In this document: positions 3,717-50,850 of the stretch, in pieces
Layout of the letters: every line of letters begins with the position of its first letter
How positions within the stretch are numbered: the first letter of the stretch is position 1
The notes under the pieces: model-generated
What the model was told of the DNA's origin: nothing
Databases searched by the model: none
Seen by the model: only the letters and a program-made list of their open reading frames with translations
Virus record (IMG/VR): IMGVR_UViG_3300035670_011527
Location: 1-54,351 of that record
DNA length: 54,351 bases
DNA from: a virus
Taxonomy: Duplodnaviria; Caudoviricetes
Direction: 5' to 3' (one strand)
Program-made: the position numbers and the translations under genes

Positions 3717-3749
3717 TATTTATAACCACAACCCTTAATTTTTAAAAAC

Positions 3750-8975: not shown

Positions 8976-8980
8976 TTAAA

Positions 8981-20283: not shown

Positions 20284-20298
20284 AAATAAGGAATTAAT

Positions 20299-20927: not shown

Positions 20928-20931
20928 TAAT

Positions 20932-22292: not shown

Positions 22293-22293
22293 T

Positions 22294-27801: not shown

Positions 27802-28101
27802 ATGAAAATAAAAGCACAACATGATAGAGTAGTCATTAAGATTATTCCTGAAAATGAATCACAATATGGTTCAATTATTATTCCCGATTTGGGAAAAGAA
27901 CGTCCCTTTAAAGGACAAGTAGTATCTGTGGGACCAGGAAGGACCACAGAATATGGTTCGGTTATTAAACCAACCTGTAAAGTAGGAGATATGGTTTTGA
28001 TTCCTCAGTTTGGGGCTCAATCAGTTTCTTATGAAAACGAAGAATATTACATAACAAGAGATAGTGAAATTTTAGCAATTTTGGAGGAAAACAATGCCTA
28101 A
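27802..28101 (+). CDS. groES: Co-chaperonin GroES
   Basis: 'DRVVIK', 'GSIIIPD..KE', 'VVSVGPG' and 'EILA'. Confidence 0.92.
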   Translation: MKIKAQHDRVVIKIIPENESQYGSIIIPDLGKERPFKGQVVSVGPGRTTEYGSVIKPTCKVGDMVLIPQFGAQSVSYENEEYYITRDSEILAILEENNA

Positions 28102-32280: not shown

Positions 32281-32478
32281 ATGTCAAAAAACAATTTAAA
32301 ATTAACATCAGTAAAAATAGATGATGAATTGTTTGAAGAATTTAAAATTAATGCTATTAAACATAAAACATCGCTACAAAAAGTAGTTAATCGTACTTTA
32401 GATTTATATAACAGAGATGAAAAATTCAGAGAAATAATTCACAATCATAATGAACTAAAAGATAAAGGAAATTTATGA
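32281..32478 (+). CDS. Ribbon-helix-helix DNA-binding protein
   Basis: 'LTSVKID.ELFEEFK...SLQKVVN'. Confidence 0.6.
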   Translation: MSKNNLKLTSVKIDDELFEEFKINAIKHKTSLQKVVNRTLDLYNRDEKFREIIHNHNELKDKGNL

Positions 32479-35705: not shown

Positions 35706-36305
35706 ATGAAAAAATCTTTATTAACATTAGTTACATTATTTGTTGTATCCCAAACAACATTTGCACAACTCCGAGATTCGGTATTGGTTGAAAAACCTAT
35801 ATTTAGAATCATGTATTCTGAAACCAAAGAACAACCACTTTGGGTAGAATATACGGTTAGAAAAATTACAAAGGGAGCAGATAGAAAGGGAATGGATTTC
35901 TTTGAAGAAAGTGATTACCATACTTCAAATAATTACGATTATGTAAGTAATGAATGGGATAAAGGACATATGGCTCCCGCTGCTCATTTTGCTGATACAA
36001 AACAAAATTTAGCACAAACATTTACATATCTAAATTCAGCACTTCAACATCAAAAATTGAATAGAGTTCAGTGGAGATTGTTAGAAGAAAAAGAAAGAGA
36101 ATGGGCTGAAGTATTTGGTGAGTTGGATGTAAGAGTGGATGTTATTTTTGATGACGTACCACAGGTGTTACCAACAGGAGCAGAAATTCCTGATGCATTC
36201 TACAAAAGAATTTATTTTCGTAGTACCCAAAAGTGGCAATGTTATTATTTCTTGAATGAACCACCTACCAAACCTTGGAATGAATACGAAGTAGAATGTA
36301 AATGA
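35706..36305 (+). CDS. Secreted DNA/RNA non-specific endonuclease (NucA/EndA family)
   Basis: Signal peptide MKKSLL...FAQ, with 'DKGHMAPAA', 'N...Q...LN...W..LE' and 'IP.AFYK'. Confidence 0.88.
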   Translation: MKKSLLTLVTLFVVSQTTFAQLRDSVLVEKPIFRIMYSETKEQPLWVEYTVRKITKGADRKGMDFFEESDYHTSNNYDYVSNEWDKGHMAPAAHFADTKQNLAQTFTYLNSALQHQKLNRVQWRLLEEKEREWAEVFGELDVRVDVIFDDVPQVLPTGAEIPDAFYKRIYFRSTQKWQCYYFLNEPPTKPWNEYEVECK

Positions 36306-36925
36306 TTACTATAAGTTATGCTATTACTGTAAAAGATGAATTAAAAGAAATTCAACAACTAGTTCCTTTTCTTTTAAAGAATAAAAGACCCAAGGATGAA
36401 ATAGTTATTCTTTATGATCAAAGAAATGGTGATGAAAGAGTAGTAGATTATTTACTTGAGTATAATAAACTTCCTAATGTTCAAACATGGAGAGGTTTTT
36501 TTGATAATCATTTTGCAGAATGGAAAAATAAACTTACAGAATATTGTAAAAATGATTATATATTCCAGATAGATGCAGACGAAATACCTCATATATCTTT
36601 ATTACAAAATCTTCCAATAATACTAGAAGACAATAACATAGATTTGATATTAGTTCCTAGAGTAAATACTGTAGAAGGAATCACACAAGAACATATTAAT
36701 AAATGGGGTTGGAGAATAAATGAAAATAATTGGATTAATTATCCGGATTATCAATTTCGTGTTTATAAAAACATTTCAACAATTAAATGGGTAAATAAAG
36801 TGCATGAAAGACTTGAGGGATATGAAAATATTTCGTATCTTCCTGCTGAAGAAGAATGGAGTTTATATCATCCCAAAACAATAGAACGCCAAGAAAAACA
36901 AAATAATTATTATAATACCTTATGA
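36302..36925 (+). CDS. Glycosyltransferase (GT-A, GT2-like)
   Basis: 'FQIDADE', 'PDYQ.R' and 'VHE'. Confidence 0.8.
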   Translation: MITISYAITVKDELKEIQQLVPFLLKNKRPKDEIVILYDQRNGDERVVDYLLEYNKLPNVQTWRGFFDNHFAEWKNKLTEYCKNDYIFQIDADEIPHISLLQNLPIILEDNNIDLILVPRVNTVEGITQEHINKWGWRINENNWINYPDYQFRVYKNISTIKWVNKVHERLEGYENISYLPAEEEWSLYHPKTIERQEKQNNYYNTL

Positions 36926-37350
36926 GAAAATATTTACCTACATTAAGTGAACTAATAGATAGATTAAGCATTGTACAACTAAAAGAAGTTTTTATAGTTG
37001 AACATAAAAATGAATATGCTCAAGAAATAAAAGATATTATCCATGATATCAATGAAATTATTTCAGAATCTAAAGATTTAACTATTGACGGAGATTTTAT
37101 AAGGGCAATTATTGTTTTATCACAGATGAATTTACATATATGGCATAATGAATCTAATTATAGAAAAGGTATAAGAGATGGTAATAATTTAGAATTAACC
37201 CATGGATTAAATGGAATTAGAAATACTGCTAAAAATAAAATTCAAGAAAAAGTCGGTGGTAGAAAAGATTATAAAATAGATTGTTTAGCAGCTGAATTCA
37301 AAGATTGGGAAATAAGTTGGAAGGATAATTTAAATAATGATAATAGGTAA
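36922..37350 (+). CDS. Helical protein associated with glycosylation clusters (DUF6165/DUF4254-like)
   Basis: 'ELIDRLSI..LK', 'N..IWH.E...R' and 'N..RN..K'. Confidence 0.5.
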   Translation: MRKYLPTLSELIDRLSIVQLKEVFIVEHKNEYAQEIKDIIHDINEIISESKDLTIDGDFIRAIIVLSQMNLHIWHNESNYRKGIRDGNNLELTHGLNGIRNTAKNKIQEKVGGRKDYKIDCLAAEFKDWEISWKDNLNNDNR

Positions 37351-37840: not shown

Positions 37841-38757
37841 CCAAAATTAAATTATATTATTTAATAATGCCTTGGCAGATAGATTATGCCTTATTATCAT
37901 TTAGTCAATTTAAAAGATCAAAATATCACTTACCAGAAGACATAGAAATAACAATAGATACTCATTTAAATTTATCTAATTACATAGTTGATTGGGATAA
38001 TAGCCAATTATCTAAAGAGTTTTTTATTAAAAAATATAATGATTTAGCAATTCTATTAAAAGACTATAAACATAATAATATCATATATGAAGGAGATGAT
38101 AATTATGGGTTATTAGATATGCAAAAGCAAGCCTATGGTAAAGAATTTGATTATTATATTTCTACTTGCCCCGATATCTATTTTAGTGAATATTTATTAT
38201 TCTATCTTATAGAATCAGCTAAATTAGTAAAAAATAAATATTTTGTTATTACTCCAGAAATTCATAAAATGTGGGATTGGACATGGGATGAAATAACTAA
38301 TGATCTTTATAAAGATATTCCTTATGATAAATGGAATTCTCCAGATATATTTGATATTGAATATAATTTGAAAAATAATAACAAAGATAGAACCTTAGAA
38401 CCAACTGAAAAAAGTAAATGGGCAATATGGTTTGATATTTGTAATAAGGCTTTTTACGAAGATTTATGTCCTCTTCATGATGATTGGATTGGTTATGGTC
38501 CTTGGGATTGGTATTCAATGATGCTATCAGAATATGCAAAAAATAAAGGCGTTGACTTTCAACAGTATGTTTTACGAGGTGAAACTATCTTTGAGTATTC
38601 TACTGGTCCTTTAAAAGATAGAAATTTTACTAGTTCTTATAAAGATTTTTTAAAAATTAAAGTAGGAGCAAATGAACAAAGAAAAAAATTTGAAGCTCGA
38701 ATGGAAGAATATCTTCAAAAAGGTATCCAAATGATTAAAGATAAAAATATAATATGA
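37837..38757 (+). CDS. Hypothetical protein, possible GT-A glycosyltransferase
   Basis: 'CPDIYF' and 'GYGPWD'; lies in the sugar cluster. Confidence 0.45.
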   Translation: MTKIKLYYLIMPWQIDYALLSFSQFKRSKYHLPEDIEITIDTHLNLSNYIVDWDNSQLSKEFFIKKYNDLAILLKDYKHNNIIYEGDDNYGLLDMQKQAYGKEFDYYISTCPDIYFSEYLLFYLIESAKLVKNKYFVITPEIHKMWDWTWDEITNDLYKDIPYDKWNSPDIFDIEYNLKNNNKDRTLEPTEKSKWAIWFDICNKAFYEDLCPLHDDWIGYGPWDWYSMMLSEYAKNKGVDFQQYVLRGETIFEYSTGPLKDRNFTSSYKDFLKIKVGANEQRKKFEARMEEYLQKGIQMIKDKNII

Positions 38758-39389
38758 TTACAGAAAGCTATTTAGGAGAAACTATTGATAAATTAATCTC
38801 CTTTTTCAAATTAAATATTAAAGGAGTTTTACATGTTGGTGCTCATCAATGTGAAGAACAAAATGTGTATTTAAAGCATATTTTTAAAGAAAATATATAT
38901 TGGATAGAAGCTATAGATAGTTTAGTTGAAAAAAATCTTCAAGAAAATCCAGAATTAAATATAATAAATGAATGTATAGGAGAAGAGGATGGTAAAAATG
39001 TTATATTTAATATATCTAATAATACTTTAAGTTCATCTATTTTAAAATTAGGTGAGCATAAAAATATTCATCCTAATGTAAAAATTGTTGATTTTTTAAA
39101 TAAAAAAACTAAAACTCTTAAAACAATCATAATAGAAAATAATTTAAAAGATAGATTTAATTTATTAGTATTAGATTTACAAGGAGCAGAATTAATGGCA
39201 TTAAAAGGTTTAGGAAATATGTTAGAAGATTTTGATTTTATTTTTACAGAAGTAAACGAAAAAGAAATTTATATAAATTGTGCATTATTAGAAGATTTAG
39301 ACGATTATTTAAAAGGTTTTAATTTTAATAGAAAATATTTAAACACACTTAACAATTATGGAAATGCATTATACATCAAAAAACATTGA
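38754..39389 (+). CDS. FkbM-family methyltransferase
   Basis: 'HVGAH..E', 'SSSIL', 'LDLQGAEL.ALKG' and 'EV'. Confidence 0.85.
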   Translation: MITESYLGETIDKLISFFKLNIKGVLHVGAHQCEEQNVYLKHIFKENIYWIEAIDSLVEKNLQENPELNIINECIGEEDGKNVIFNISNNTLSSSILKLGEHKNIHPNVKIVDFLNKKTKTLKTIIIENNLKDRFNLLVLDLQGAELMALKGLGNMLEDFDFIFTEVNEKEIYINCALLEDLDDYLKGFNFNRKYLNTLNNYGNALYIKKH

Positions 39390-39981
39390 AGAATTAAATA
39401 CTAAAGGACTTACTCATATAGATAATGTTTTACCTTTAGATTTAGCTAATCAGATATATGAACTTTATGAAAAAGAAACCGAATGGTCTCTCATAGACCA
39501 GGTTAGGCCACATCATTATAATCATGTTTTTAAATCACCTAATCCTTATCTACCTCATGAAGATGAAGCATACTCTGCTAGATTTAGTAGATCAAATATT
39601 TTGGAGAACAACGAAATTATTAAAGATATTTTTAATAAACATTTATTTCCTTTTGCTAAAACACTTTCTCCTTTTGAAATTAATGAATATGATATAAGAT
39701 GTTATAAATTAGATTCTGGAGATCATTATCGAACTCATATTGACGATTATGCTGGTTCTATTAATATGATATATTATGTTAACAAAAATTGGAGATGGGA
39801 TTGGGGTGGTATTTTAAATGTTTTATCTCATGATGATTTAGATTTTTGTGAATCTATATTTCCTCGATTTAATAGAATTACTTTATTAAATAATAAAATA
39901 TTTAGAGCCCCCCATTTTGTTAGTACTATTGAACAATATGCTCAGAATCCTCGATATACTATTGTATCTTTTAATAAATAA
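39358..39981 (+). CDS. 2OG-Fe(II) oxygenase
   Basis: 'HID', 'YYVN..W...WGG.L', 'P.FNR' and 'H.V......RYTI'. Confidence 0.8.
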   Translation: MEMHYTSKNIEELNTKGLTHIDNVLPLDLANQIYELYEKETEWSLIDQVRPHHYNHVFKSPNPYLPHEDEAYSARFSRSNILENNEIIKDIFNKHLFPFAKTLSPFEINEYDIRCYKLDSGDHYRTHIDDYAGSINMIYYVNKNWRWDWGGILNVLSHDDLDFCESIFPRFNRITLLNNKIFRAPHFVSTIEQYAQNPRYTIVSFNK

Positions 39982-39984: not shown

Positions 39985-40872
39985 ATGATTGTGTTTTCTA
40001 ATTTTAGAGATTCTAAAACAGATCCATATATGGTTTTTATACAAGAACAGTATAAAGATAAGCCATTTACTTTTTGGTATGATAAATTTCCAGAAAATTT
40101 AGATCAATTAAAATATAACCCATATAATTTTTTATTTTTACATGAACCCGATGAATTTTTTGGTTTTCATAAATATGCTTTAAACCATCATTCTTACTTT
40201 TCAGCAATACTAACATGGAATAATCTATTGTTACATAATTTAAATAATGCAATTAATTTTACTTATAATGGGCAAACATTAGATAATGAATATATTACAC
40301 AGAATCATGATTTGAAAGAATTTAATGTATCTTTTTTATGTGGAACTAAAAATTTAGTTGAAGGACATCATTTAAGACAAAAAATATATAAATTAGAAGA
40401 TTTAGTAAAAATACCTAAAAAATGGTATTATGTGTTAGAAGATTATGATTTTGAAAATAATGCTCGTCCAGGATATTCTGATTATTCTAAAGATTTATCT
40501 CATATTCCAAATGGAATAGATCCTATTGGGTATGGTAGAAGAGTTTTATTTAATAATTCTATGTTTAATATCGTTGTTGAAAATGTAAAATATAATAATT
40601 GGTATAATAAAATAGGAGATAATTTTGTTTCTAAAACTATCCCCATTTACTGGGGATGCCCTAATATAAAAGAATTTGGTTATGATGAAAGAGGAATTAT
40701 TAGATTTGAAAATGAAAAAGAATTATTAGATATTATAAATAATTTGACTTCTCAAGATTATTTTAATAAATTAGAATATATTGAACATAATTACAATGTT
40801 GCAGTAGTTGATACTTTTGAAAATAATATTACTCAATTTTTTGATCAATTTTGTATTTTAAATAATTTATGA
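39985..40872 (+). CDS. GT10 (alpha-1,3-fucosyltransferase-like) glycosyltransferase
   Basis: 'FNIVVEN......KI.D.F...TIPIYWG.PN' motif. Confidence 0.7.
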   Translation: MIVFSNFRDSKTDPYMVFIQEQYKDKPFTFWYDKFPENLDQLKYNPYNFLFLHEPDEFFGFHKYALNHHSYFSAILTWNNLLLHNLNNAINFTYNGQTLDNEYITQNHDLKEFNVSFLCGTKNLVEGHHLRQKIYKLEDLVKIPKKWYYVLEDYDFENNARPGYSDYSKDLSHIPNGIDPIGYGRRVLFNNSMFNIVVENVKYNNWYNKIGDNFVSKTIPIYWGCPNIKEFGYDERGIIRFENEKELLDIINNLTSQDYFNKLEYIEHNYNVAVVDTFENNITQFFDQFCILNNL

Positions 40873-41345
40873 TATTTCCTGAAGTAAAAATATTTCAACC
40901 AGATGTTTTCGAAGATTTTAGAGGAGAATTATTCACTCTATTTAAACAAGAAGACCATGATTTAGTTTTTAATCATGATAAAGTATCTATTTCAAAACAA
41001 TATGTTTTACGAGGATTACATGGTGATCACAAATCATGGAAACTAGTTACATGTTTAGCAGGTGAAATATATTTTGTAATAGTAGATAATAGATCCGATT
41101 CTCCTAATTATTTAAAATGGGATTGGACGATACTTACAGCAAAAAATAGACGTTCAGTATTAATTCCCCCTATGTTTGCTAATGGACATTACATTATTAG
41201 TAAAGAAGCTACATTTTTTTATAAATGGTCATATAAAGGTGATTATCCAGATGTAAAAGATCAATTTACTTTAAAATGGGATGATCCCAATATAGGAATT
41301 CATTGGCCTATTTCTGATCCAATATTATCTAAAAGGGATAAATAA
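40869..41345 (+). CDS. rmlC: NDP-4-keto-6-deoxyhexose 3,5-epimerase (RmlC family)
   Basis: 'F.D.RG', 'VLRGLH', 'KLV.C..G', 'W.DP' and 'LS.RD'. Confidence 0.85.
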   Translation: MIFPEVKIFQPDVFEDFRGELFTLFKQEDHDLVFNHDKVSISKQYVLRGLHGDHKSWKLVTCLAGEIYFVIVDNRSDSPNYLKWDWTILTAKNRRSVLIPPMFANGHYIISKEATFFYKWSYKGDYPDVKDQFTLKWDDPNIGIHWPISDPILSKRDK

Positions 41346-41347
41346 TA

Positions 41348-41379
41348 TTTGGAAATTAACTTAAAATTTATTATATTTA
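41348..41379 (+). promoter_or_regulatory. Bacteroidota-type promoter
   Basis: TTTG-N20-TATATTTA upstream of the ThDP enzyme genes. Confidence 0.55.
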
Positions 41380-41386
41380 ATTAAAT

Positions 41387-42013
41387 ATGAATATTCCAAA
41401 ACACTATACTAAAGTTAGAGATATAGATCTTACACCAAATGATCTTATTTCTTTTGAAGATAAAGTAAAAAATGCTTATGAGACTGCTCAAGTGAGAGGT
41501 CCTGTACACTTATCAAAAAATAATGAAGAACAATTAATAGAGTTATTTCAATATATTCATCCTAAAGATTGGGTGTTATCAGCATGGAGAAATCATTATC
41601 ATGCTTTGCTTCATGGAATAGATCCTGATAAATTGTTTGAATGGATTAGTGAAGGTAGAAGTATGGGTATAAATAATGTTAATCCTAATTTTTATGCTTC
41701 ATCTATTGTTGGAGGTATTATTCCCATATCTTTAGGAATAGCCGCAGGATTAAAAAGATCAAATTCTTCACAAAGAGTATGGTGTTTTATAGGTGATATG
41801 ACTATGGAAACAGGAGTATTTTGGGAAGCATATAAATATTCTCAAAATATGAATTTACCTCTTCAGTTTGTAGTAGAAGACAATAATTTAAGTGTTCATA
41901 CTCCAACAGATATAGCTTGGGGTAAAAGAATGGATGTTCCTCCAAATGTAATTTATTATCAATATAAAATGTCCTATCCCCATCATGGAACAGGTAAATG
42001 GGTAAACTTTTAA
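41387..42013 (+). CDS. ThDP-dependent enzyme, E1-alpha-like subunit (minimal)
   Basis: 'HLS...E', 'R.HYHAL', 'GRSM', 'IVGG' and ThDP motif 'GD...TG...E...EDNN'. Confidence 0.85.
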   Translation: MNIPKHYTKVRDIDLTPNDLISFEDKVKNAYETAQVRGPVHLSKNNEEQLIELFQYIHPKDWVLSAWRNHYHALLHGIDPDKLFEWISEGRSMGINNVNPNFYASSIVGGIIPISLGIAAGLKRSNSSQRVWCFIGDMTMETGVFWEAYKYSQNMNLPLQFVVEDNNLSVHTPTDIAWGKRMDVPPNVIYYQYKMSYPHHGTGKWVNF

Positions 42014-42017
42014 AAAT

Positions 42018-42548
42018 ATGAAATACAGAGAAGAATTAATAAGATCAATGGAATGGTTAGCCACTAAACCAGATATTGTATTTACAGGTCAAGCTATAGG
42101 AATGTCAGGTCATGCTATTTCTGGTACTGTATCTACTGTTCCTCAAGATAAAAGAATAGAATTACCAGTATTTGAAGAAACCCAATTAGGAATGGCTACA
42201 GGAATGGCTTTAACAGGATGGGTTCCTGTTACTGCTTATCCTCGTTTTGATTTTTTTATTTTATCTTTAAATCAATTAGTTAACCATTTAGATAAAATAC
42301 AAGACATGTCTAAAGGAGACATGAAACCCAAAGTGATTATTCGAGTAGCTATAGGTTCTAAAATTCCATTCAGTGCAGGTCCTCAACATACTCAAGATCA
42401 TACTGAAGCAATACGTAAAATGCTTACTGAAGTAGAAGTAGTAGAATTAATAGAACCTGAAGATATTTTTCCTGCTTTTGAAAAAGCTTATAATAGCGAT
42501 AAATCAACTTTAATTATTGAACATAGTGAATATTATGGAAGTAAATAA
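42018..42548 (+). CDS. ThDP-dependent enzyme, E1-beta/transketolase pyrimidine-binding subunit (no C-terminal domain)
   Basis: 'ELPVFE..Q.GMA.GMAL.G', 'NQLVNH' and 'GPQH.Q'. Confidence 0.85.
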   Translation: MKYREELIRSMEWLATKPDIVFTGQAIGMSGHAISGTVSTVPQDKRIELPVFEETQLGMATGMALTGWVPVTAYPRFDFFILSLNQLVNHLDKIQDMSKGDMKPKVIIRVAIGSKIPFSAGPQHTQDHTEAIRKMLTEVEVVELIEPEDIFPAFEKAYNSDKSTLIIEHSEYYGSK

Positions 42549-43251
42549 ATATATTTCAATTTTAATTAGTTCTAGAGAACATGATAGAAAAAATTCAGGA
42601 AATTTAATAAATTTTTTAACTTCTTTAAGAAATTCTATTTCAAATCCAAATAATATTGAAGTTATTTTTAAATTTGATAAAGATGATGATATTATAGAAG
42701 GAAAACTGAATGAAGCTAAAGAAAAATGTCCTGATTTAAATGTTAAATATGTCATATCAGATAGATATGGTTATTTAGGTTTACATAAAGCGTATTATGA
42801 TTGTTTGAAGGAAGTAGATTCTAATTCTAAAGTAATAGTAATATTAGCAGATGATTTTGATTTTCATAGAGAAAGAAACTGGGATTTAGATATTATTAAA
42901 AATTCATTTCATATTCAAGATGAACCTTTTATAGTACAAGATAGTAGAAAAATAGGAAAGATGCATGATATTCCTACATTTAGTAAAAAAATTATAGATT
43001 TAGTAACTTTAGGTAATTCTTTAAGTGTAGATGGTTTTTTAATAGATTTATGTGAAATATATTTAAGAAATAATTTAAATAATTACATTGTATTTGTACC
43101 TGAATTTACTTCTAGAAAACATTGTAATTACGATGTAGGAATAGAAAGAAAAATAGAAAGTAATAAACTAGGAACATATTTAGCTTCTCAAGAATATAAA
43201 GAATTTTTAAAAAATTGTGAAAATAAAATAAAAAATTATTTTAATATCTAA
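42517..43251 (+). CDS. Hypothetical protein, GT-A-like
   Basis: 'ISILISSR', 'KFD.DD' and 'ADD'. Confidence 0.5.
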   Translation: MNIVNIMEVNKYISILISSREHDRKNSGNLINFLTSLRNSISNPNNIEVIFKFDKDDDIIEGKLNEAKEKCPDLNVKYVISDRYGYLGLHKAYYDCLKEVDSNSKVIVILADDFDFHRERNWDLDIIKNSFHIQDEPFIVQDSRKIGKMHDIPTFSKKIIDLVTLGNSLSVDGFLIDLCEIYLRNNLNNYIVFVPEFTSRKHCNYDVGIERKIESNKLGTYLASQEYKEFLKNCENKIKNYFNI

Positions 43252-43252
43252 T

Positions 43253-44416
43253 ATGAAATATACTTGGCCTTTAATTAATGATAACATCACTCAAGGTGAT
43301 AGAAAAATTTTAGCTGATTTTTGTCTAAATGGTGAGCGTTTTACGAATGGACCTAAAGTAAAAGAATTTGAAGAAATTTGGTCTAAATGGTTGGGTGTTA
43401 AATATTCCGTAATGGTAAATTCAGGTGCTTCAGCCAATTATATTTCTATTGCTATGGTAAAAGAATTAGTAGGTGAAGGAGAAGTAATTGTTCCTCCTAT
43501 TGGTTGGGTTTCAGATATATCTTCAGTTGCTCAATTAGGTATGACACCTGTATTTGTGGATGTTTCACTTGATGATTTTAATATTACATCTGAAAATATT
43601 AGAAATGCTATTACACCAAAAACTAAAGCAATTGTATTAGTTCATACATTAGGATTTCCAGCAATTAATGATGAAATTATTCAAATCGCTAAAGATAATA
43701 ATTTAATTTTAATTGAAGATTGTTGTGAAGCACATGGTGCTGTTTATAATAATCAACGTGTAGGTTCATTTGGGGATATTTCATTATTTTCATTTTATTT
43801 TGGTCATCATATTACTACTATTGAAGGTGGCACTATTTGTGTAAATGATGATAAATTATATGACCTAGCTAAATTATTTCGTTCACATGGAATGACTCGT
43901 GAAGCATCTCAAGAATTACAACGTGATTACCAGTTGATGTATCCTAATTTAAATCCATTATTTACATTTGCTGTAGCTGGGTTTAATATGCGTCCAACTG
44001 AACTAAACGCAGTGTTAGGTATTGAGCAAATGAAACGTTTAGATTCTAATATAGAACGTAGAAGAGAAAATCTTGATATTTGGTTAGACAACCTTGATAA
44101 TTCAAAATTTATGACTTTTTTTAAAAGACAAGGAAATAGTAATTTTGCTTTACCTCTTATGATGCAAGAAATTACTCGAAATAAATTAAAAAATATTTGT
44201 AATATTTTAGATAAAGAAAAGGTAGAATATCGTTTAGGAACAGCTGGAGGAGGAAATCAGGCACGTCAGCCATATTTGAAAAAATTTCCTCACAGAATAG
44301 AAGGAACATTATCTAAAGCAAATTATGTTCACAATAATGCTTTATATATAGGAAATCACACAGATTTAACTAAAGAACAAATTATTAACTTATGTAACAA
44401 ATTAAACAATGTTTAA
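43253..44416 (+). CDS. PLP-dependent NDP-4-keto-6-deoxysugar 3-dehydratase (ColD-like, DegT family)
   Basis: 'NSG.SAN', 'EDCCEAHGA' and 'SFYFGHHITTIEGG', with His at the position of the Schiff-base Lys; 387 aa. Confidence 0.8.
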   Translation: MKYTWPLINDNITQGDRKILADFCLNGERFTNGPKVKEFEEIWSKWLGVKYSVMVNSGASANYISIAMVKELVGEGEVIVPPIGWVSDISSVAQLGMTPVFVDVSLDDFNITSENIRNAITPKTKAIVLVHTLGFPAINDEIIQIAKDNNLILIEDCCEAHGAVYNNQRVGSFGDISLFSFYFGHHITTIEGGTICVNDDKLYDLAKLFRSHGMTREASQELQRDYQLMYPNLNPLFTFAVAGFNMRPTELNAVLGIEQMKRLDSNIERRRENLDIWLDNLDNSKFMTFFKRQGNSNFALPLMMQEITRNKLKNICNILDKEKVEYRLGTAGGGNQARQPYLKKFPHRIEGTLSKANYVHNNALYIGNHTDLTKEQIINLCNKLNNV

Positions 44417-45380
44417 AAATCAAAAAATATTAATAACAGGTGGAGGAGGAATGATTGGTAGATCATTGGTAAAATTCTTTCTTGAAAAAGAAGCTAAAGT
44501 AACTATTGCTGATCTTACTGTACCATCTGATTTACCTCATGAAGTAGAATTTATAAAAGTTGATCTTCGTTATTTTGATCAATGTGAAATTATTTGTAAA
44601 GGAATGGATTATGTTTTTAATTTAGTAGGAATTAAAGGTTCTCCTAAAATGTGTGCTGAACAACCGGCTGATTTTATGGTTCCTATGCTCCAATTTAATA
44701 CAAATATGATGGAAGCAGCCCGAAGAGCCAATGTTAAATGGTATCTATATACGAGTTCTGTTGGAGTATATGCTCCAGCTGAAGTATTTGTTGAAGATAG
44801 TGTGTGGTCAACTGTTCCATCACCTAATGATCGTTTTGCTGGTTGGGCTAAACGTATGGGAGAACTTCAAGCTGAAGCATATTCTATTCAATATGGTTGG
44901 AATAAGGTATCAATAGTAAGACCAGCAAATGTGTATGGTAATTATGATAATTTTAATCCAGCAAATGCTATGGTTATTCCTTCTCTTATAAGAAAAGCCC
45001 AAGAAAACGATATACTTGAAGTTTGGGGAGATGGCACTACTATTAGAGATTTTATTCATGCTGATGATGTTGCTTTAGGAATGATATTTGTTGTTGAAAA
45101 TCAAATTACTAAACCTATGAATTTAGGATCAGGTAGAGGATATTCAATTAAAGAAATAGTAGACATGGTTGTAAAACATTCTCAAAAAGAACTTAAAATA
45201 AAATGGTTAACAGATAAACCATCAGGAGATAAAATTCGTTTGTTTGATATGAATAGAGCTAAATCTTATGGATTTGATATTTCAGTATCTTTAGATGAAG
45301 GTATCCGTAGAACAACTGAATGGTTTTTAGATAATAGAGATATTTTAGATAAACGATATAACGCTTTTGTGGATCATTAA
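44409..45380 (+). CDS. NAD-dependent epimerase/reductase (GDP-fucose synthase / ColC-like)
   Basis: 'GGGGMIG', 'RPANVYG.YDNF' and 'VWGDG...RDF'. Confidence 0.8.
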   Translation: MFKNQKILITGGGGMIGRSLVKFFLEKEAKVTIADLTVPSDLPHEVEFIKVDLRYFDQCEIICKGMDYVFNLVGIKGSPKMCAEQPADFMVPMLQFNTNMMEAARRANVKWYLYTSSVGVYAPAEVFVEDSVWSTVPSPNDRFAGWAKRMGELQAEAYSIQYGWNKVSIVRPANVYGNYDNFNPANAMVIPSLIRKAQENDILEVWGDGTTIRDFIHADDVALGMIFVVENQITKPMNLGSGRGYSIKEIVDMVVKHSQKELKIKWLTDKPSGDKIRLFDMNRAKSYGFDISVSLDEGIRRTTEWFLDNRDILDKRYNAFVDH

Positions 45381-46069
45381 TGGCTAGATTTCTTGTAACC
45401 GGAATTAATAGTGGATTAGGAAAACATTTATTTGAAACATTGCCTGATTCATTAGGATTAGATAGAAATAATTTTAATCTTATTAAACATGAAAATTTTG
45501 ATACTATAATTCATTGTGCTTTTAATAAAGAAACAAACATAATAGATTACAAAAAATATATAGACGATAATATATTTTTAACTCAGCGTCTTAAAAAATT
45601 AAACTATTCTAAATTTGTTTATATATCTACAGTAGATGTATATCAAGAAAATCATAATATGTATTCTCATTTTAAAAAATTTGCTGAAACACTATTGGAT
45701 GATGATGACTTAATATTAAGATGCCCAATGTTATTAGGATATACAATGAAACCTAACCATTCTGAAAGATTAAAAAACAATGAAGAAAAAATAGGATTAT
45801 CTGGAGAATCTTTATTTAACTATATTTTAATGGATGATTTAGCAGAATTTTTTAATAGTAACGACTATACAAAATATACAGGAGTACTTGATTTTGTATC
45901 TAATGATGTAGTTAAACTTCAAGAAGTTAAAGATTATTTTGGATCAACAACAAAATTAGGAGAATATGTTTATAAAAATAGTTTGGATTTTGTAAATCCT
46001 ATATTTAAATTAGACAAAAAATATAATAAATCATCTTTTGATAGAATAAAACAATATTATGGAAAATAA
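45380..46069 (+). CDS. Short NAD-dependent epimerase/dehydratase
   Basis: 'TG..SGLG', 'IIHCA', 'STVDVY' and 'Y..FK'. Confidence 0.7.
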   Translation: MARFLVTGINSGLGKHLFETLPDSLGLDRNNFNLIKHENFDTIIHCAFNKETNIIDYKKYIDDNIFLTQRLKKLNYSKFVYISTVDVYQENHNMYSHFKKFAETLLDDDDLILRCPMLLGYTMKPNHSERLKNNEEKIGLSGESLFNYILMDDLAEFFNSNDYTKYTGVLDFVSNDVVKLQEVKDYFGSTTKLGEYVYKNSLDFVNPIFKLDKKYNKSSFDRIKQYYGK

Positions 46070-47018
46070 TTTTTTTAAAAATAAAAAAGTAGTAGTTACT
46101 GGAGGATCAGGTTTTATAGGAACACATTATCTTCTTGAATTATTAGATCAAGGAGCCATCGTTAAGACTCATACTCATAATAAACCCCTTCAAATTCAAG
46201 ACAATAGACTTGATGTAGTGGAGAATATAGATTTAACCAATCTTAATGATTGCATTAGATTAATTGAAGGAGCAGATTATGTAATTCATTCGGGTGGTCA
46301 AATAGCCCACCCTTCTACTGTACCTACTGATATTCAAATATCAATGCAGAATATTCTAGTATTAGGAAATACACTTGAAGCATCATATAAATTAGGAGTG
46401 AAACGATTTTTAGATCTAAATAGCTCAACAGGTTATCCTGATGTTCGTAAACCATTAACAGAAGACGAATTTTGGAATGATGAACCATATAAATCTTATT
46501 ATGGATACGGATGGATGCGTCGTTACAGAGAAAAATTAATGGAACACGTATCTAAATTTTCAGGAATGGAAATAGCTTTAACACGTGGAACTGCTATTTA
46601 TGGACCATATGATAATTTTGATCCTAAAACATGTCACGTGGTTCCTGCTTTAATTAAAAGAATATTAGATGGTGAAGATCCTTTTATTGTTTGGGGTACT
46701 CCAGATGTAGTTAGAGATTTTCTTTATGTAAAAGATGTTGTTAAAGCTGCTTTATTGGTGCTTGAAAAGGGAGAATCTATGAGACCCTATAACATAGGAT
46801 CAGGTATAGCAATAACAGTAGGAGATATAGTTAATGCTATTTTAAAAGCAACAAATAAGAATCCAGAAGTTATTTATGATGAAACTAAACCTACTACAAT
46901 TCCCTTTAGAATGGTTAGTACAGAAAGATTAACAAATGAACTGGGTTTTGTTCCTTCCTATACTTTTGAAAAAGGGATCCAAGAAACAGTTAACTGGTAT
47001 ATAGAAAATTATGAGTAA
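46059..47018 (+). CDS. NAD-dependent epimerase/reductase (GDP-fucose synthase-like)
   Basis: 'GGSGFIG', 'YGPYDNF', 'HVVPALI' and 'VWG....RDF'. Confidence 0.8.
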   Translation: MENNFFKNKKVVVTGGSGFIGTHYLLELLDQGAIVKTHTHNKPLQIQDNRLDVVENIDLTNLNDCIRLIEGADYVIHSGGQIAHPSTVPTDIQISMQNILVLGNTLEASYKLGVKRFLDLNSSTGYPDVRKPLTEDEFWNDEPYKSYYGYGWMRRYREKLMEHVSKFSGMEIALTRGTAIYGPYDNFDPKTCHVVPALIKRILDGEDPFIVWGTPDVVRDFLYVKDVVKAALLVLEKGESMRPYNIGSGIAITVGDIVNAILKATNKNPEVIYDETKPTTIPFRMVSTERLTNELGFVPSYTFEKGIQETVNWYIENYE

Positions 47019-48021
47019 TGCCTTAATAACGGGTATAACGGGAATGGTAGGTTCCCATCTATTAGATTTTCTTATAAAGAATACTGATTGGGAAATTTAT
47101 GGATTTCTCCGTTGGTATGATAGATTAGATAATATTGAACATCATTTTCAGAGTATTAATAATAAAGATCGAATTCATTTAATTTACGGTGATTTAAATG
47201 ATTATTCTTCTTTACAAAATGCAATAGAAATATCTAAACCTAATTATGTTTTTCATTTAGCTGCTCAATCTTATCCTCAAACTAGTTTTGATGCTCCTTT
47301 AGAAACATTGCAAACCAATATAATTGGAACAACTAATTTACTTGAGGTATTAAAAAAATCAAAATACAAAAATTCTATCATTCATGTATGTGCAAGTAGT
47401 GAAGTATTCGGAAGAGTAAGTAAAGAAGAATTACCTATTAATGAAAATTGTAGATTTCATCCTGCTTCTCCTTATGCTATATCAAAAGTAGGAACAGATT
47501 TAATAGGAAGATATTATGCTGAAGCATATGGTATGACTATCATGACTACAAGAATGTTTACCCATACTGGTCCAAGAAGAGGAGATGTATTTTCAGAATC
47601 AACTTTTGCTAAACAAATAGCAATGATAGAAGCAGGACAACAAGAACCAAAAATATATGTTGGTAATTTAGAATCACTTCGTACATATGCTGATGTAAGA
47701 GATGCAGTTAAAGCTTATTATATGTTGGTAACTATTAATCCTAAACCAGGTGAATATTATAATATAGGAGGAACATATACTTGTAAAATAGGCGATATGT
47801 TAAGTTATTTAATCAATCAATCATCAGTTAATAATATTGAAATTGTAATTGATCCTGAACGTCTAAGACCAATTGATGCTGATTTACAAATACCTGATAC
47901 TACAAAATTTCAAAATCATACAGGTTGGAAACCAGAATATACTTTTGAACAGACAATGAATGATCTTTTAGAATATTGGAGAGATAAAATAAAATCAGGA
48001 AGGAAATTTTTAAGGAGATGA
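47011..48021 (+). CDS. gmd: GDP-mannose 4,6-dehydratase
   Basis: 'ALITGITG..GS.L', 'HLAAQS', 'SSEVFG', 'P.SPYA.SK', 'GNL...R' and 'RP.D'. Confidence 0.8.
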   Translation: MSNALITGITGMVGSHLLDFLIKNTDWEIYGFLRWYDRLDNIEHHFQSINNKDRIHLIYGDLNDYSSLQNAIEISKPNYVFHLAAQSYPQTSFDAPLETLQTNIIGTTNLLEVLKKSKYKNSIIHVCASSEVFGRVSKEELPINENCRFHPASPYAISKVGTDLIGRYYAEAYGMTIMTTRMFTHTGPRRGDVFSESTFAKQIAMIEAGQQEPKIYVGNLESLRTYADVRDAVKAYYMLVTINPKPGEYYNIGGTYTCKIGDMLSYLINQSSVNNIEIVIDPERLRPIDADLQIPDTTKFQNHTGWKPEYTFEQTMNDLLEYWRDKIKSGRKFLRR

Positions 48022-48758
48022 AAATATTAGTAATAGGAGATAGTTGCTTAGATATTTTTAGATATGGAAAAGTAAATAGATTAGCACCGGAAGCTCCAAT
48101 TCCTATTATTATTCCTGAAAAAGAAACATCAAATCCAGGAATGGCTGGAAATGTAGTAGCTAATTTAAAGGCACTTGGTGTTGATGTAGATTTTATAACT
48201 AATAAAAATGAAATCAAAAAAATTAGATATGTTTGTTCCAAATATAACCATTTACTTTTAAGAGTAGATGAAAATGATAAATGTGAACGAATTGACATTT
48301 CTGTTATATCTTTTGATATATTTGAAAATTACAATGCTATAATTATTTCTGATTATTGTAAAGGATTTTTAACCGAAGAAGATATCCAATATATTTCTCA
48401 GAAATCAAAAATACCTGTATTTTTAGATACAAAAAAGTTATTAGGTAATTGGGCTCATGATGTTGATTTTATAAAAATTAATTATAATGAATATGAAAAT
48501 AATATTAATATCTTAGAAACAGATAACATCTTTAAGAATAAAACAATAATTACTAGAGGAAAATATGGGTGTAATTATAAAGGAAAAAATTATCCTACTA
48601 TAGATGTACCAGTAAAAGACGTTTCAGGAGCAGGTGATACTTTTATAGCGGGATTAGCAACCGAATATATTCGTTCTAAAGATATAGAAAAAGCTATTGA
48701 TTTTGCTCAAAAATGCACAACAATAGTAATCCAAAAATCTGGAGTATCTACAATATGA
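48018..48758 (+). CDS. PfkB-family sugar kinase (HldE/RfaE domain I-like)
   Basis: 'RLAPEAP.P', 'G.AGNV..N', 'SDY.KG' and 'DVSGAGDTF'. Confidence 0.85.
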   Translation: MKILVIGDSCLDIFRYGKVNRLAPEAPIPIIIPEKETSNPGMAGNVVANLKALGVDVDFITNKNEIKKIRYVCSKYNHLLLRVDENDKCERIDISVISFDIFENYNAIIISDYCKGFLTEEDIQYISQKSKIPVFLDTKKLLGNWAHDVDFIKINYNEYENNINILETDNIFKNKTIITRGKYGCNYKGKNYPTIDVPVKDVSGAGDTFIAGLATEYIRSKDIEKAIDFAQKCTTIVIQKSGVSTI

Positions 48759-49609
48759 AAACAGCCGCTTTAATTTATGGAAGAAATGATGGATATAAAG
48801 AAGATAATAGATTAATAGTTCATATAAATTCTCTATTAGAAACATTTGATGAAGTATTGTATCTTGATTGGAATTCAGATGATGAAAAAGGATCTGTATT
48901 AAATAATATAAAACATAAACTTCCCCAGATAGGTAAAATAAAACATTTTGTTATTCCTGCTAGTATAGTTTCAGAAATATATAATGGAATAGAAGGAATA
49001 GGAGCATGTATTTCTCCTATTATATATAATATTTTGATAAGAAGATGTGATGCAGAGTGGATGGTAGCTACAACAAATGATATTATAGCACCTAATAAAG
49101 ATTTATTTGTTGAATTTATGAGTAAAGTAAATAAAAATACTTTTTATACTTTTTCTAGAAGAGACATTGAAATTAAAGAACTAGAACAGTTTGGATTTGA
49201 AAAATGGAGAGAATATAGAGAAATACTAAACAAAACAACAGAAGAGAGAAGAGTATATGCAAAAGTAACCCCAAATGATAATTATAGTATTATAAATTGT
49301 TGTGGAGATTTTCAATTAGCCCATAGAGATCTATTATATAGTATTAAAGGATTTGAAGAAAATATGTTTTTTGCATGTTATGCTGATACCAATATTCAGA
49401 AAAAAGCTGTAATGAATGGTTATAATTTGGAAGCAATATATAATATTCCTTTATATCACATGTCTCATATAGGAATGGGAAATGATGGATCATCGCCATC
49501 CAAACAAAAATATAACGATCCTTATTACTGGGTAGAATATTTTAAAAAAAGTGAAAATGATGAAAACTGGGGATTAAATAATATAGAAATAGAATATGAA
49601 ATAATATAA
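48755..49609 (+). CDS. Hypothetical protein, GT-A-like
   Basis: 'GRNDGY', 'DWNS', 'N..IRR', 'GDFQL' and 'GFEE'; start placed at the ATG overlapping the previous stop. Confidence 0.55.
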   Translation: MKTAALIYGRNDGYKEDNRLIVHINSLLETFDEVLYLDWNSDDEKGSVLNNIKHKLPQIGKIKHFVIPASIVSEIYNGIEGIGACISPIIYNILIRRCDAEWMVATTNDIIAPNKDLFVEFMSKVNKNTFYTFSRRDIEIKELEQFGFEKWREYREILNKTTEERRVYAKVTPNDNYSIINCCGDFQLAHRDLLYSIKGFEENMFFACYADTNIQKKAVMNGYNLEAIYNIPLYHMSHIGMGNDGSSPSKQKYNDPYYWVEYFKKSENDENWGLNNIEIEYEII

Positions 49610-49986
49610 TGAAAAAAACATTTGATTTTTTAGAACCAAGTAAGATAGTTCCAAAAGGATGGGGACATGAACATCATATAGTAAATAATTATGATTATTG
49701 TTTAAAACTTTTGATATTTGAAAAAGGAAAAAAGTTTTCTATGCATTATCATATCAACAAGACAGAAACATGGTATGTTAATAAAGGACATTTTAATTTA
49801 TATCTAATTGATACTAATACTTCTCAAATTCAAAAATATGATTTTAAAAAAGGAGATATTTTAACCTTATATCCTGGACAACCACATCAATTAGAAGCCT
49901 TAACAGATTCAGAAATAATTGAAGTATCAACATATGATGAAAGTTATGATAATTATAGAGTATTTCCAGGAGATTCACAACAATGA
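49609..49986 (+). CDS. Cupin-fold sugar isomerase
   Basis: 'VPKGWG.E', 'SMHYH..K.ETW', 'PGQPHQ' and 'EVST'. Confidence 0.75.
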   Translation: MKKTFDFLEPSKIVPKGWGHEHHIVNNYDYCLKLLIFEKGKKFSMHYHINKTETWYVNKGHFNLYLIDTNTSQIQKYDFKKGDILTLYPGQPHQLEALTDSEIIEVSTYDESYDNYRVFPGDSQQ

Positions 49987-50387
49987 AAATATGGTCAAAT
50001 GGGTGTTTTGATTTATTTCACTATGGACATCTAAAATTATTAGAATTTGCTTCTCAGCAAGGAGAAGAATTATTTGTAGGAATAGATAGTGATTATAAAA
50101 TCAAACAAAAAAAAGGCAACAATAGACCTATTATTCCTCAAGAACAAAGAATAGAAATTATAAAAAATCTAAAATTTGTTAACAAAGTATTTGTATATGA
50201 TTCTAATGAAGAATTAGAAAATACAATTAGATTAGTAAAACCAGATAGAATTGTGATAGGGGATGATTACAAATATCAAGATGTAGTAGGTGAAAAATAT
50301 GCAAAAGAAATTATATTTTTTCCTAAACTTGATGGTATTTCTACTTCCTTAATTGAAAATAAAATAATTAATATGTATAATAAATAA
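49983..50387 (+). CDS. Nucleotidyltransferase (HldE domain II / cytidylyltransferase family)
   Basis: 'NGCFDLFHYGH', 'KG..RP', 'G.DY' and 'STS'. Confidence 0.88.
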   Translation: MKIWSNGCFDLFHYGHLKLLEFASQQGEELFVGIDSDYKIKQKKGNNRPIIPQEQRIEIIKNLKFVNKVFVYDSNEELENTIRLVKPDRIVIGDDYKYQDVVGEKYAKEIIFFPKLDGISTSLIENKIINMYNK

Positions 50388-50394: not shown

Positions 50395-50850
50395 ATGAAA
50401 ATTGATATTAACAAGATTATACACGAAGAACTTGATAAAATTCTTGGTCGTGTTAAAGAACAAGATGAAGAAGATACACAAAATATTGTTTCTCCTTCTG
50501 TTAATACTGTTGTTTTTAACAACATAAAATATCGTTTCAAAACTGGCGTAAATAGAAACCCAACTAAACTTGGAATTAAAATTCAATTTACACCTATGGA
50601 AGGAATGGATCCCCAAGACCCAGATGAACGCCAAAAACAAGACGCACTACTTCAGAAATATCTTAATAAGAAGTTCCAAGAATATGGTAAACCATCTTTA
50701 GTAGTCGATTTTGATACAGACGTTCCAAACCCAAATACAACTGGATTCATAATTCGTTTGGGTTTGATAGAATCTTTAGTAGATTCCTTCTTTAAACAAG
50801 AATCTGAATCCGATGCCATCAGCAATACACCTGACGATAGAGCAGATTAA
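50395..50850 (+). CDS. Hypothetical protein
   Basis: 151-aa ORF preceded by the ATATGTAT motif. Confidence 0.55.
   Translation: MKIDINKIIHEELDKILGRVKEQDEEDTQNIVSPSVNTVVFNNIKYRFKTGVNRNPTKLGIKIQFTPMEGMDPQDPDERQKQDALLQKYLNKKFQEYGKPSLVVDFDTDVPNPNTTGFIIRLGLIESLVDSFFKQESESDAISNTPDDRAD

Follow-up and report, generated by a model that had tools for sequence, protein, structure and literature searches.

The contig IMGVR_UViG_3300035670_011527, all 54,351 nt of which are here termed the window, is a phage, with its long open reading frames (ORFs) all on the plus strand and a G+C content of about 27%. At the centre of its glycan island lies an operon in which homologues of a bacterial deoxyheptose pathway flank a two-gene enzyme dependent on thiamine diphosphate (ThDP). 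With the chances about evenly divided, this operon would build a guanosine diphosphate (GDP)-linked, C4-branched 3,6-dideoxy-heptose for a phage-directed glycan, by C4 acetyl branching and then reduction. An earlier, sequence-only reading had taken the stretch from 40869 to 48021 as a route from GDP-mannose to a GDP-linked yersiniose-like sugar. The ORFs it listed are real and on the plus strand at the coordinates given below, overlapping or a few bases apart in the manner of an operon, with a longest gap of 41 bases. The functional unit runs past 48021 and takes in the genes at 48018-50387, which encode a kinase and a nucleotidyltransferase, both HldE-like, and between them a GT-A glycosyltransferase and a cupin. 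The genes are as follows, with E values for the matches.

39985..40872, plus strand: GT10-like glycosyltransferase, 295 aa (ESM Atlas neighbours)
40869..41345, plus strand: heptose-type 3,5- (or 5-) epimerase, cupin fold, RmlC-like (PF00908, 1.8e-39)
41387..42013, plus strand: ThDP enzyme alpha, 208 aa, diphosphate-binding (PP) domain only (E1_dh, 1.1e-12)
42018..42548, plus strand: ThDP enzyme beta, 176 aa, pyrimidine-binding (Pyr) domain only (Transket_pyr, 1.2e-9)
42517..43251, plus strand: inserted ORF, at most 244 aa, between the genes for ThDP beta and ColD, possibly a GT-A-like transferase
43253..44416, plus strand: ColD-type C3-dehydratase dependent on pyridoxamine or pyridoxal phosphate (PMP/PLP), 387 aa (PF01041, 2.7e-80, residues 24-384)
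44409..45380, plus strand: Fcl-like extended short-chain dehydrogenase/reductase (SDR), 323 aa, candidate C4 or branch ketoreductase (Epimerase, 7.1e-45)
45380..46069, plus strand: short SDR, 229 aa, candidate ketoreductase (TGxxxGxG and YxxxK motifs)
46059..47018, plus strand: second Fcl-like extended SDR, 319 aa, at a variable position of the cassette (Epimerase, 3.1e-44)
47011..48021, plus strand: GDP-heptose-type 4,6-dehydratase, 336 aa (7us5, 2.6e-111, 375 bits)
48018..48758, plus strand: PfkB-family kinase, 246 aa, like HldE domain I (heptose-7-phosphate 1-kinase; TIGR02198, 4.1e-41)
48755..49609, plus strand: GT-A fold glycosyltransferase, 284 aa by the database gene calls (AlphaFold model)
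49609..49986, plus strand: small cupin, 125 aa, candidate sugar(-phosphate) isomerase or epimerase (Cupin_2, 5.3e-9; Lyx_isomer, 6.4e-6)
49983..50387, plus strand: cytidylyltransferase-fold nucleotidyltransferase, 134 aa, like HldE domain II (TIGR02199, 5.8e-30; phrog_7878, 2.3e-37)

Enzymes of the operon

The dehydratase had been labelled GMD (GDP-mannose 4,6-dehydratase), a name that has to be given up, as its match to 7us5, the GDP-D-glycero-D-manno-heptose 4,6-dehydratase of Campylobacter jejuni and of DmhA/WcbK type, is the best by a wide margin and covers residues 3-334. True GMD structures give 120-155 bits, at about 1e-44 or weaker (4e-44 for GMD 1db3), the E. coli enzyme scoring 155 bits against 375 for the heptose dehydratase, and on the NCBIfam gmd equivalog TIGR01472 the protein reaches 186.3 bits where the cut-off is 415. 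Its motifs are GxxGxxG (as GITGMVG), SSE and YAISK. Much the same applies to the epimerase, previously called RmlC. Its best PDB matches are heptose epimerases of C. jejuni, cupins of DdahB/MlghB type, namely 7ang (1.6e-47) and 8dco (7.1e-47). Those to 7ang, 7an4, 8dco and 8db5 together run from 1.6e-47 to 2.4e-46, and those to the C. jejuni heptose 3,5- and 3-epimerases from 1.6e-47 to 2.2e-44, as against 6.8e-25 for RmlC 1dzr, and on the NCBIfam rmlC equivalog it scores 116 bits, under the cut-off of 155.75.

The earlier description of a ColD-like enzyme with His in place of the catalytic Lys was accurate. The best PDB match is ColD 2gms (5.3e-60), closer than the [2Fe-2S] E1 dehydrase 3bcx (3.8e-48), and no ferredoxin-reductase-like (E3 reductase) gene was found among the window ORFs scanned with Pfam and PHROGs. 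His185, the first His of FYFGHHITT, aligns with ColD His188, a column marked by the H188N and H188K mutant entries, and His stands at the Schiff-base Lys position in 61 of the 62 ColD-like matches of the loci that were fetched. The sole exception, in a Chloroflexota locus (L027), is an aminotransferase-like DegT protein with Lys instead. The best available reading is of a candidate C3 deoxygenase acting on a GDP-4-keto-6-deoxy sugar.

Three SDR-fold genes are present (44409-45380, 45380-46069 and 46059-47018), as had been noted. Aligned to E. coli Fcl (GDP-fucose synthase), the 323-aa protein has Phe at the catalytic Tyr136 with the Lys kept, i.e. a Ser/Phe/Lys triad, and is without equivalents of the Cys109/His179 epimerisation pair; the 319-aa protein, aligned to 7ll6 and 1bws, keeps the Tyr and His and has Arg at the Lys position. 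These non-canonical columns recur in relatives of both, and need not mean dead enzymes, since the active C. jejuni heptose C4-reductase MlghC has Ser107/Phe136/Lys140 (PMC7949155). The 229-aa SDR has a weak Epimerase match (1.3e-4) and one to the nucleotide-sugar epimerase family phrog_540 (1.2e-8); it occurs in some only of the loci with a minimal ThDP pair, and in none of those with the larger pair dealt with below. In near-identical cassettes the slot of the 319-aa SDR holds an SDR that is either 73-90% or only 27-38% identical (L007-L010, L047). This swap upstream of the dehydratase recalls the serotype-specific C4-reductases of C. jejuni.

The two ThDP genes had been described as a minimal split enzyme of 208 + 176 aa, without E2/E3 and without a beta C-terminal domain, and that is what they are. 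Alpha covers positions 8-170 of the 300 in the E1_dh profile, Pfam finds no Transketolase_C domain in beta, and the pair at 384 aa in total is short of a full-length E1 alpha/beta. Its only Pfam matches are E1_dh, Transket_pyr and, weakly (1.7e-5), DXP_synthase_N, the single-chain TPP_enzyme_N/M/C architecture of YerE-type enzymes not being found by Pfam. In NCBIfam, alpha gives 85 bits with PDH_E1_alph_y (cut-off 393.85) and beta 46 bits with an E1 beta model (cut-off 321). Alpha corresponds to positions 2-200 and beta to positions 237-405 of the fused, 405-position phrog_34187 (listed as 'function unknown'), and the existence of fused homologues suggests that the two chains associate. The ThDP/Mg motif GD(M/G)...EDNN is conserved in all nine family members aligned across clades. 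Beta aligns to E1 beta Pyr domains, with the Glu of PVFEE matching that of E1 beta 'lnE', which is the activating/catalytic residue. The pair looks competent from its residues, and cannot be the E1 of pyruvate dehydrogenase (PDH), because the C-terminal part of alpha, the C-terminal domain of beta and the E2/E3 genes (none among 52 window ORFs scanned, 27 with Pfam and 25 with PHROGs) are missing. The loss of the alpha C-terminal region and of the beta C-terminal domain would fit an enzyme that never meets E2.

A length-restricted search with the ThDP chain yielded 3,719 protein clusters at E<=1e-5, the best 120 of which are nearly all of about 208 aa. The family extends through phages, Pelagibacteraceae single-cell genomes, Chloroflexota, Patescibacteria and DPANN archaea. 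In public records its members go under such names as 'pyruvate dehydrogenase E1 component alpha subunit' or 'transketolase central region-containing protein', so that the mislabelling foreseen in the earlier reading has indeed occurred.

Downstream of the dehydratase, the kinase has rfaE_dom_I as its top NCBIfam family, at 141 bits (below the cut-off of 345) and about 70 residues short of the model, and the nucleotidyltransferase, with an FDLFHYGH motif, has rfaE_dom_II, at 104 bits (below the cut-off of 181.5). The 125-aa cupin travels with the kinase and nucleotidyltransferase in cyanophage loci; a PDB sequence search with it returned chance-level matches only. The GT-A transferase (48755..49609) has no Pfam match and 970 homologues, all unnamed; its model (predicted local distance difference test, pLDDT, 73; predicted template modelling score, pTM, 0.80) finds K4CP at 5e-11 and SpsA at 7e-9 with Foldseek. 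ORF 48713-49609 was considered as the missing GmhB phosphatase or GmhA isomerase and rejected, the model being of a GT-A glycosyltransferase fold.

At the other end of the operon, the gene just upstream (39985-40872) had been thought GT10-like. In its favour, ESM Atlas gives a feature score of 0.98 to clusters with PF00852 in 44-67% of their members and a structure row (template modelling score, TM, 0.78) that reaches the bar for Glyco_transf_10, and there is a weak tblastn link to a GT10-positive ORF of L014, one of the fused-type loci dealt with below; the family call itself is not borne out by Pfam, which gives no match even at E=5 (PF00852 included), nor is there a PHROG match.

The cassette in other genomes

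The gene order is conserved in eleven close viral loci (84-88% identity), scored only as far as each contig reaches: the epimerase comes first, then the two ThDP genes with alpha ahead of beta, then ColD, the SDRs, the dehydratase and the kinase. The block is retained at 75-90% identity across dozens of independent contigs, so the operon is not a chance arrangement. In these eleven, the ColD start is 3-9 bases after ThDP beta. The ORF that separates the two genes in the window (42517-43251), whose only match is a weak one to a PHROG glycosyltransferase (9.9e-4), has no homologue in any of the eleven, nor in 62 further loci (73 related loci in all), and so is a recent insertion, or gene gain, in an otherwise fixed operon.

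A set of 62 viral loci was also retrieved by close similarity to the dehydratase. As it was gathered by such similarity and may contain duplicates, counts from it describe one phage group and do not extend to nature in general. In 32 of the loci at least 9 kb is present on either side of the heptose-type dehydratase, and these carry the minimal ThDP pair in 22 cases, a larger E1-type pair in seven and neither in three, with ColD in 28 and the epimerase in 25. The larger pair consists of a 276-aa protein (E1_dh) and one of about 305 aa (with Transket_pyr), and in the two loci mapped it occupies the same slot between epimerase and ColD, in company with genes for a DJ-1/PfpI protein, a 227-aa cupin and a 128-aa protein (L050:3619-6943, L075:1540-4832). 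That a paralogous E1-type pair can take over the slot of the minimal one speaks for an E1-type reaction as an integral step of the pathway. The three loci devoid of ThDP genes all keep ColD, and two of them keep both Fcl-like SDRs, which are therefore independent of the ThDP step.

More distant split pairs (43-59% identity) are present in a genome collection, in Pelagibacteraceae single-cell genomes and in Chloroflexota, Patescibacteria, Omnitrophota and DPANN bins. In three of these bacterial loci (L027, L034 and L035; pairs 48-59% identical) the neighbours are genes of the GDP-heptose route. The order in L027 is NTP_transferase, SIS (GmhA-like), ThDP alpha, ThDP beta, heptose-type dehydratase and GHMP kinase (HddA-like), followed by NUDIX, SDR, epimerase and SDR. 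In L034 the genes next to the pair are those for an NTP_transferase-HAD fusion, a dehydratase, an epimerase and a GHMP kinase, and the dehydratases of both loci are 54-57% identical to that of the window. L035 has a GHMP kinase, HAD phosphatase, NTP_transferase and malic enzyme and two ThDP systems, a full-size E1 alpha/beta pair and a minimal one, at 2849-4726 and 14004-15140; a malic enzyme inside a sugar cluster would be a source of pyruvate, which favours branching. A Pelagibacteraceae locus (L026) has a split transketolase beside the minimal pair (7277-9026), and in a Patescibacteria locus (L029) the same split pair is beside a canonical GMD (PF16363, 477 bits) and a NUDIX gene.

A different arrangement is that of the fused type, for which 15 loci at about 44% identity, mostly cyanophage-like and including some duplicates, were collected (L001, L002, L014-L024, L038, L039). 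A PfkB kinase is linked in 12 of the 15, usually after the ThDP gene, and a nucleotidyltransferase and cupin are often present. Cyanophages S-SM2 (SSM2_198) and P-TIM68 are named examples: their gene, of about 400 aa and 44% identity, with alpha and beta fused, is annotated 'transketolase central region-containing protein' and adjoins homologues of the PfkB kinase, nucleotidyltransferase and cupin that the window's cassette also carries. They differ from it in the Zn-dependent alcohol dehydrogenase that precedes the fused gene and in having no ColD, heptose dehydratase or epimerase flanking it. In one locus (L024) the ThDP and alcohol dehydrogenase genes have capsid, cement and Mu-F-like genes on either side and adjoin one for an 887-aa protein with a weak MptE-like match, a setting that hints at virion glycosylation. 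In another (L019:11185-13587) the fused gene is followed by an 800-aa methyltransferase fusion with a weak GT9 (heptosyltransferase) match (9.1e-5), and then by adenosine phosphosulfate (APS) kinase and sulfotransferase genes, which is another link of the family to heptose glycans.

A proposed pathway and its competitors

The precursor is most likely GDP-D-glycero-D-manno-heptose rather than the GDP-mannose first supposed, because dehydratase and epimerase are of heptose type, the HldE-like genes adjoin, and the bacterial ThDP loci carry the GDP-heptose-route genes SIS, GHMP-kinase and NTP_transferase, corresponding to GmhA, HddA and HddC. With such a precursor the product would be a heptose analogue, in place of the yersiniose-like hexose of the earlier reading. 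The GDP linkage proposed there is supported, since GDP-sugar enzymes are the nearest relatives of the ColD-type protein, of the dehydratase and epimerase of heptose type and of the Fcl-like SDRs, and the transferase looks GT10-like. The course of events then envisaged, i.e. dehydration, C3 deoxygenation, C4 branching and reduction, fits the gene set and is still the best available reading, with a change of starting sugar, most probably to a heptose.

The closest parallel is C. jejuni, in which GDP-3,6-dideoxy-heptoses (serotypes HS:5 and HS:11) are made by four enzymes, a heptose 4,6-dehydratase, a PLP-dependent C3-dehydratase, a C5-epimerase and a C4-reductase (PMC10440746). Homologues of all four are present in the phage, one to one and adjacent, with 7us5, 7ang and 8dco as the best PDB matches of dehydratase and epimerase and the MlghC triad in one SDR, so that the core pathway is, as far as such likeness can tell, a new viral member of this known route. 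The phage differs in adding the ThDP alpha/beta pair and two further SDRs, and in having HldE-like PfkB and cytidylyltransferase-fold genes, not HddA/HddC. The C. jejuni pathway is that of a bacterial capsule locus, whereas the operon here is viral. GDP-colitose synthesis (GMD, ColD, ColC) is a more distant parallel: ColD is the nearest solved relative of the phage enzyme, the His-for-Lys exchange is common to both and the SDRs are Fcl/ColC-like. In the phage, however, the dehydratase is not a canonical GMD, an extra ThDP step is present and the epimerase is a separate cupin, ColC being bifunctional with the epimerase included.

From these genes we infer the substrates, order of steps, carboligation and acceptor glycan of the following scheme. 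A heptose nucleotide, most likely GDP-D-glycero-D-manno-heptose, would come from the host and/or from the action of the phage HldE-like kinase, cupin and nucleotidyltransferase. The heptose-type 4,6-dehydratase would convert it to a 6-deoxy-4-keto sugar, from which the ColD-type enzyme, by PMP chemistry, would strip the C3 hydroxyl to give a 3,6-dideoxy-4-keto sugar, with inversion at C5 by the cupin epimerase. The minimal ThDP alpha/beta enzyme would then decarboxylate pyruvate, and the hydroxyethyl-ThDP carbanion attack the C4 ketone to yield a 4-C-acetyl tertiary alcohol. One SDR would reduce the acetyl group to 1-hydroxyethyl, the products being in turn GDP-4-C-acetyl- and GDP-4-C-(1-hydroxyethyl)-3,6-dideoxy-heptose, while the remaining SDRs may draw off some of the 4-keto sugar towards deoxyheptoses without a branch. 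Attachment of the sugars to an acceptor, whether a host envelope or a virion glycan, would fall to the GT10-like and other transferases. On chemical grounds C4 is the probable branch site, as the sole electrophilic sugar carbon after ColD, and since ColD itself needs the C4 ketone, the order dehydratase, ColD, (epimerase), ThDP enzyme and reductase would be the sole workable one.

Precedent for the branching comes from actinomycete antibiotic clusters (e.g. aldgamycin, avilamycin, paulomycin and kibdelomycin), where E1-type (alpha-KADH2) pairs add a pyruvate-derived C2 branch at C3 or C4 of nucleoside diphosphate (NDP)-keto-sugars, the branch ketone being then reduced, methylated or transaminated (PMC12247030; PMC4802897, PMC4425429). 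KbDH-alpha/beta couples pyruvate to cyclic ketones in vitro, and for E1-type pairs located in NDP-sugar clusters C-branching is the one role on record (PMC12247030). An in-silico survey cited there (about 120 alpha-KADH2 and more than 200 YerE-like clusters) may bear on novelty. Likened by description, the phage pair is also a two-subunit E1-fold ThDP enzyme in an NDP-keto-sugar cluster lacking E2/E3, and it would be expected to take pyruvate as donor and to leave a C2 branch at a ring ketone, with a ketoreductase acting next. It differs in being the PP + Pyr core only, of 384 aa, where the antibiotic-pathway E1 subunits are full-size, with about 300 aa or more each, and in a sugar that is GDP-linked and probably a heptose, where the antibiotic branching pathways use deoxythymidine diphosphate (dTDP)-hexoses.

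For yersiniose A, YerE/YerF carry out C4 branching of cytidine diphosphate (CDP)-4-keto-3,6-dideoxyglucose and reduction of the side-chain ketone, and an ErwE/MyGE 'unifying scheme' is put forward (PMC9306805); YerE-type enzymes are treated under decarboxylases in PMC12247030. The likeness is in a 3,6-dideoxy-4-keto nucleotide sugar receiving a ThDP-borne acyl anion at C4, with side-chain reduction to follow. The phage enzyme differs, however, in being of E1/Transket_pyr type without the full TPP_enzyme N/M/C, the substrate of YerE being a CDP-sugar and YerE-type enzymes being single chains of the decarboxylase (AHAS-like, i.e. acetohydroxyacid synthase-like) superfamily. The core pathway and E1-type sugar branching are both of known kinds. 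What is new is the proposed union of the two on a heptose, a ThDP enzyme stripped to two domains and the occurrence in a virus.

Several points weigh against the branched-heptose proposal. The classical product of HldE-type enzymes is ADP-beta-heptose, but it is enzymes of GDP-alpha-heptose that those of the tailoring steps resemble, so that supply route and pathway would normally be at odds, and neither a GmhA (SIS) nor a GmhB (HAD) homologue was found in the window with Pfam and NCBIfam scans. The two Fcl-like SDRs look like C4 reductases and are both present in ThDP-free loci (L096, L098), and a C4 reductase would be superfluous, as C4 is quaternary after branching. By sequence the ThDP pair is only 'E1-like' (PDH E1 alpha, 2.5e-9), and a biochemical test of the minimal family was not found in the literature searched. 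Among its fused relatives, all 15 loci have a Zn-dependent alcohol dehydrogenase gene before the ThDP gene but not all have a 4,6-dehydratase nearby, and in L024 the fused gene, alcohol dehydrogenase and a short-chain dehydrogenase stand among capsid genes without sugar-activation genes. The reaction common to the family may therefore need no 4-keto-6-deoxy sugar.

A rival possibility is that no branching occurs, with only unbranched GDP-6-deoxy- and 3,6-dideoxy-heptoses being formed, as in C. jejuni, and the ThDP enzyme making some small molecule from pyruvate (acetaldehyde, acetoin or an acyloin), to be put on as a substituent or used in another way. A complete pathway is known that needs no more than the four core enzymes (PMC10440746). 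Retention of the two C4-reductase-like SDRs where ThDP genes are lacking would also be accounted for. The trio in L024 (fused ThDP, alcohol dehydrogenase and short-chain dehydrogenase) presumably resembles acetoin/butanediol enzymes. We nevertheless consider it unlikely, given that the ThDP genes are embedded between epimerase and C3-dehydratase with frames overlapping or nearly touching, that an E1-type pair is kept in 29 of the 32 fully flanked loci, even where the minimal form has been replaced, and that branching is the sole role on record for such pairs in NDP-sugar clusters (PMC12247030).

That branching does occur, on a substrate derived from GDP-mannose, to give a GDP-linked yersiniose-like 3,6-dideoxy-hexose while the HldE-like genes serve another sugar, would suit the closeness of the C3-dehydratase to ColD of the GDP-colitose pathway. 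It would also suit L029, whose canonical GMD and NUDIX genes are an arrangement typical of GDP-fucose or colitose clusters, and a GT10-like transferase, that family using GDP-fucose-type donors. It is decidedly improbable when set against a dehydratase that gives 375 bits with the heptose enzyme and 155 with E. coli GMD and is far under the gmd cut-off, a heptose-type epimerase, C. jejuni epimerases and reductases being reported as highly heptose-specific (PMC7949155), and heptose-activation genes that adjoin both here and in bacterial loci. Least probable, and by our estimate very much so, is that the ThDP enzyme acts upstream of the pathway as a transketolase- or DXS-like maker of a ketose phosphate that the cupin isomerises, PfkB phosphorylates and the nucleotidyltransferase activates. 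The PfkB kinase adjoining the fused enzyme in 12 of 15 loci, often with nucleotidyltransferase and cupin, the weak DXP_synthase_N matches and the split transketolase of L026 speak for this. The domains, however, are of E1 and not transketolase type, and the phage ThDP genes are among NDP-sugar tailoring genes 6 kb from the kinase. The bacterial loci have GmhA, which uses the sedoheptulose-7-phosphate of central metabolism, so that a dedicated precursor enzyme is not needed, and on chemical grounds there would be no isomerisation to an aldose for a 1-deoxy-ketose made from pyruvate.

Branching of a heptose thus being preferred, a broader proposal, to which we give slightly less than an even chance, is that the minimal E1-type family (PP + Pyr, split or fused, about 384-400 aa) is a widespread stand-alone carboligase that branches GDP-4-keto-deoxyheptoses. 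No paper was found that joins a ThDP enzyme to a heptose pathway or to phages, in a search with incomplete coverage of subscription journals.

Phage setting and wider meaning

The glycan island of which the operon is the centre spans about 32.4 to 50.4 kb. Other features of the island and of the rest of the window are listed here.

19486-23422, plus strand: QueC-like, QueE-like and GTP cyclohydrolase genes (PHROGs)
28094-29719, plus strand: GroEL-like chaperonin (phrog_5725, 1.8e-163)
32475..35267, plus strand: two GT4-type (Glycos_transf_1) glycosyltransferases, 491 + 438 aa, at the start of the island (PF00534, 5.8e-9 and 5.5e-8; phrog_2170)
35706-36305, plus strand: non-specific DNA/RNA endonuclease within the island (PF01223, 1.1e-26)
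36302..36925, plus strand: GT2-family glycosyltransferase, 207 aa (PF00535, 5.8e-6)
36922..37350, plus strand: small conserved protein, 142 aa, travelling with the cassette (75-85% identical in relatives)
38754..39981, plus strand: FkbM-family methyltransferase (211 aa) and 2-oxoglutarate (2OG)-Fe(II) oxygenase (207 aa), candidate tailoring enzymes (PF05050, 1.2e-9; PF13661, 2.1e-10)
50813-51463, plus strand: HNH endonuclease just past the island

The GT4-type transferases are conserved, being upstream in close relatives too, and the copies of the GT2-family transferase in relatives are 50-61% identical. A homologue of the 142-aa protein adjoins the 2OG oxygenase and ThDP genes in two differently ordered loci (L081, L070), where the oxygenase is again beside the ThDP genes, and another is in L098, a locus without ThDP. 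No family was found for this protein with Pfam at E<=5, PHROGs or ESM Atlas, and the first two of these yielded no usable match for the ORFs at 35260, 37337, 37837 and 50395 either.

Phage genes recognised by PHROGs include those for a baseplate hub, a gp32-like single-stranded DNA-binding protein, a UvsX-like recombinase, a DnaB-like helicase, ribonucleotide reductase, a family-B DNA polymerase and a clamp loader. The polymerase is at most 34.7% identical to those in the phage record collection searched, and the lineage is accordingly an uncultured one. To judge by the genes for QueC-like and QueE-like proteins and for GTP cyclohydrolase, the phage DNA may be modified with 7-deazaguanine. The stretch is present in four DNA sequencing runs of one study, labelled subsurface metagenome, one of which may be its source; no RNA runs are among the listed runs that contain it, which has no bearing on expression.

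If the carboligase reading is true, the product would be a nine-carbon C4-branched 3,6-dideoxy-L-heptose, of a class for which no description was found in the literature searched, and with which phages would remodel a host envelope glycan or decorate the virion. The pair would then be the smallest E1-type enzyme known to form tertiary-alcohol C-C bonds, of interest for biocatalysis as well as for the new branched heptose. Given their PDH and transketolase names, virome surveys may miscount these ThDP genes as auxiliary metabolic genes of central carbon metabolism. The operon also indicates that phages are carriers of complete, cassette-variable heptose-tailoring pathways, like those behind the capsule serotypes of Campylobacter.

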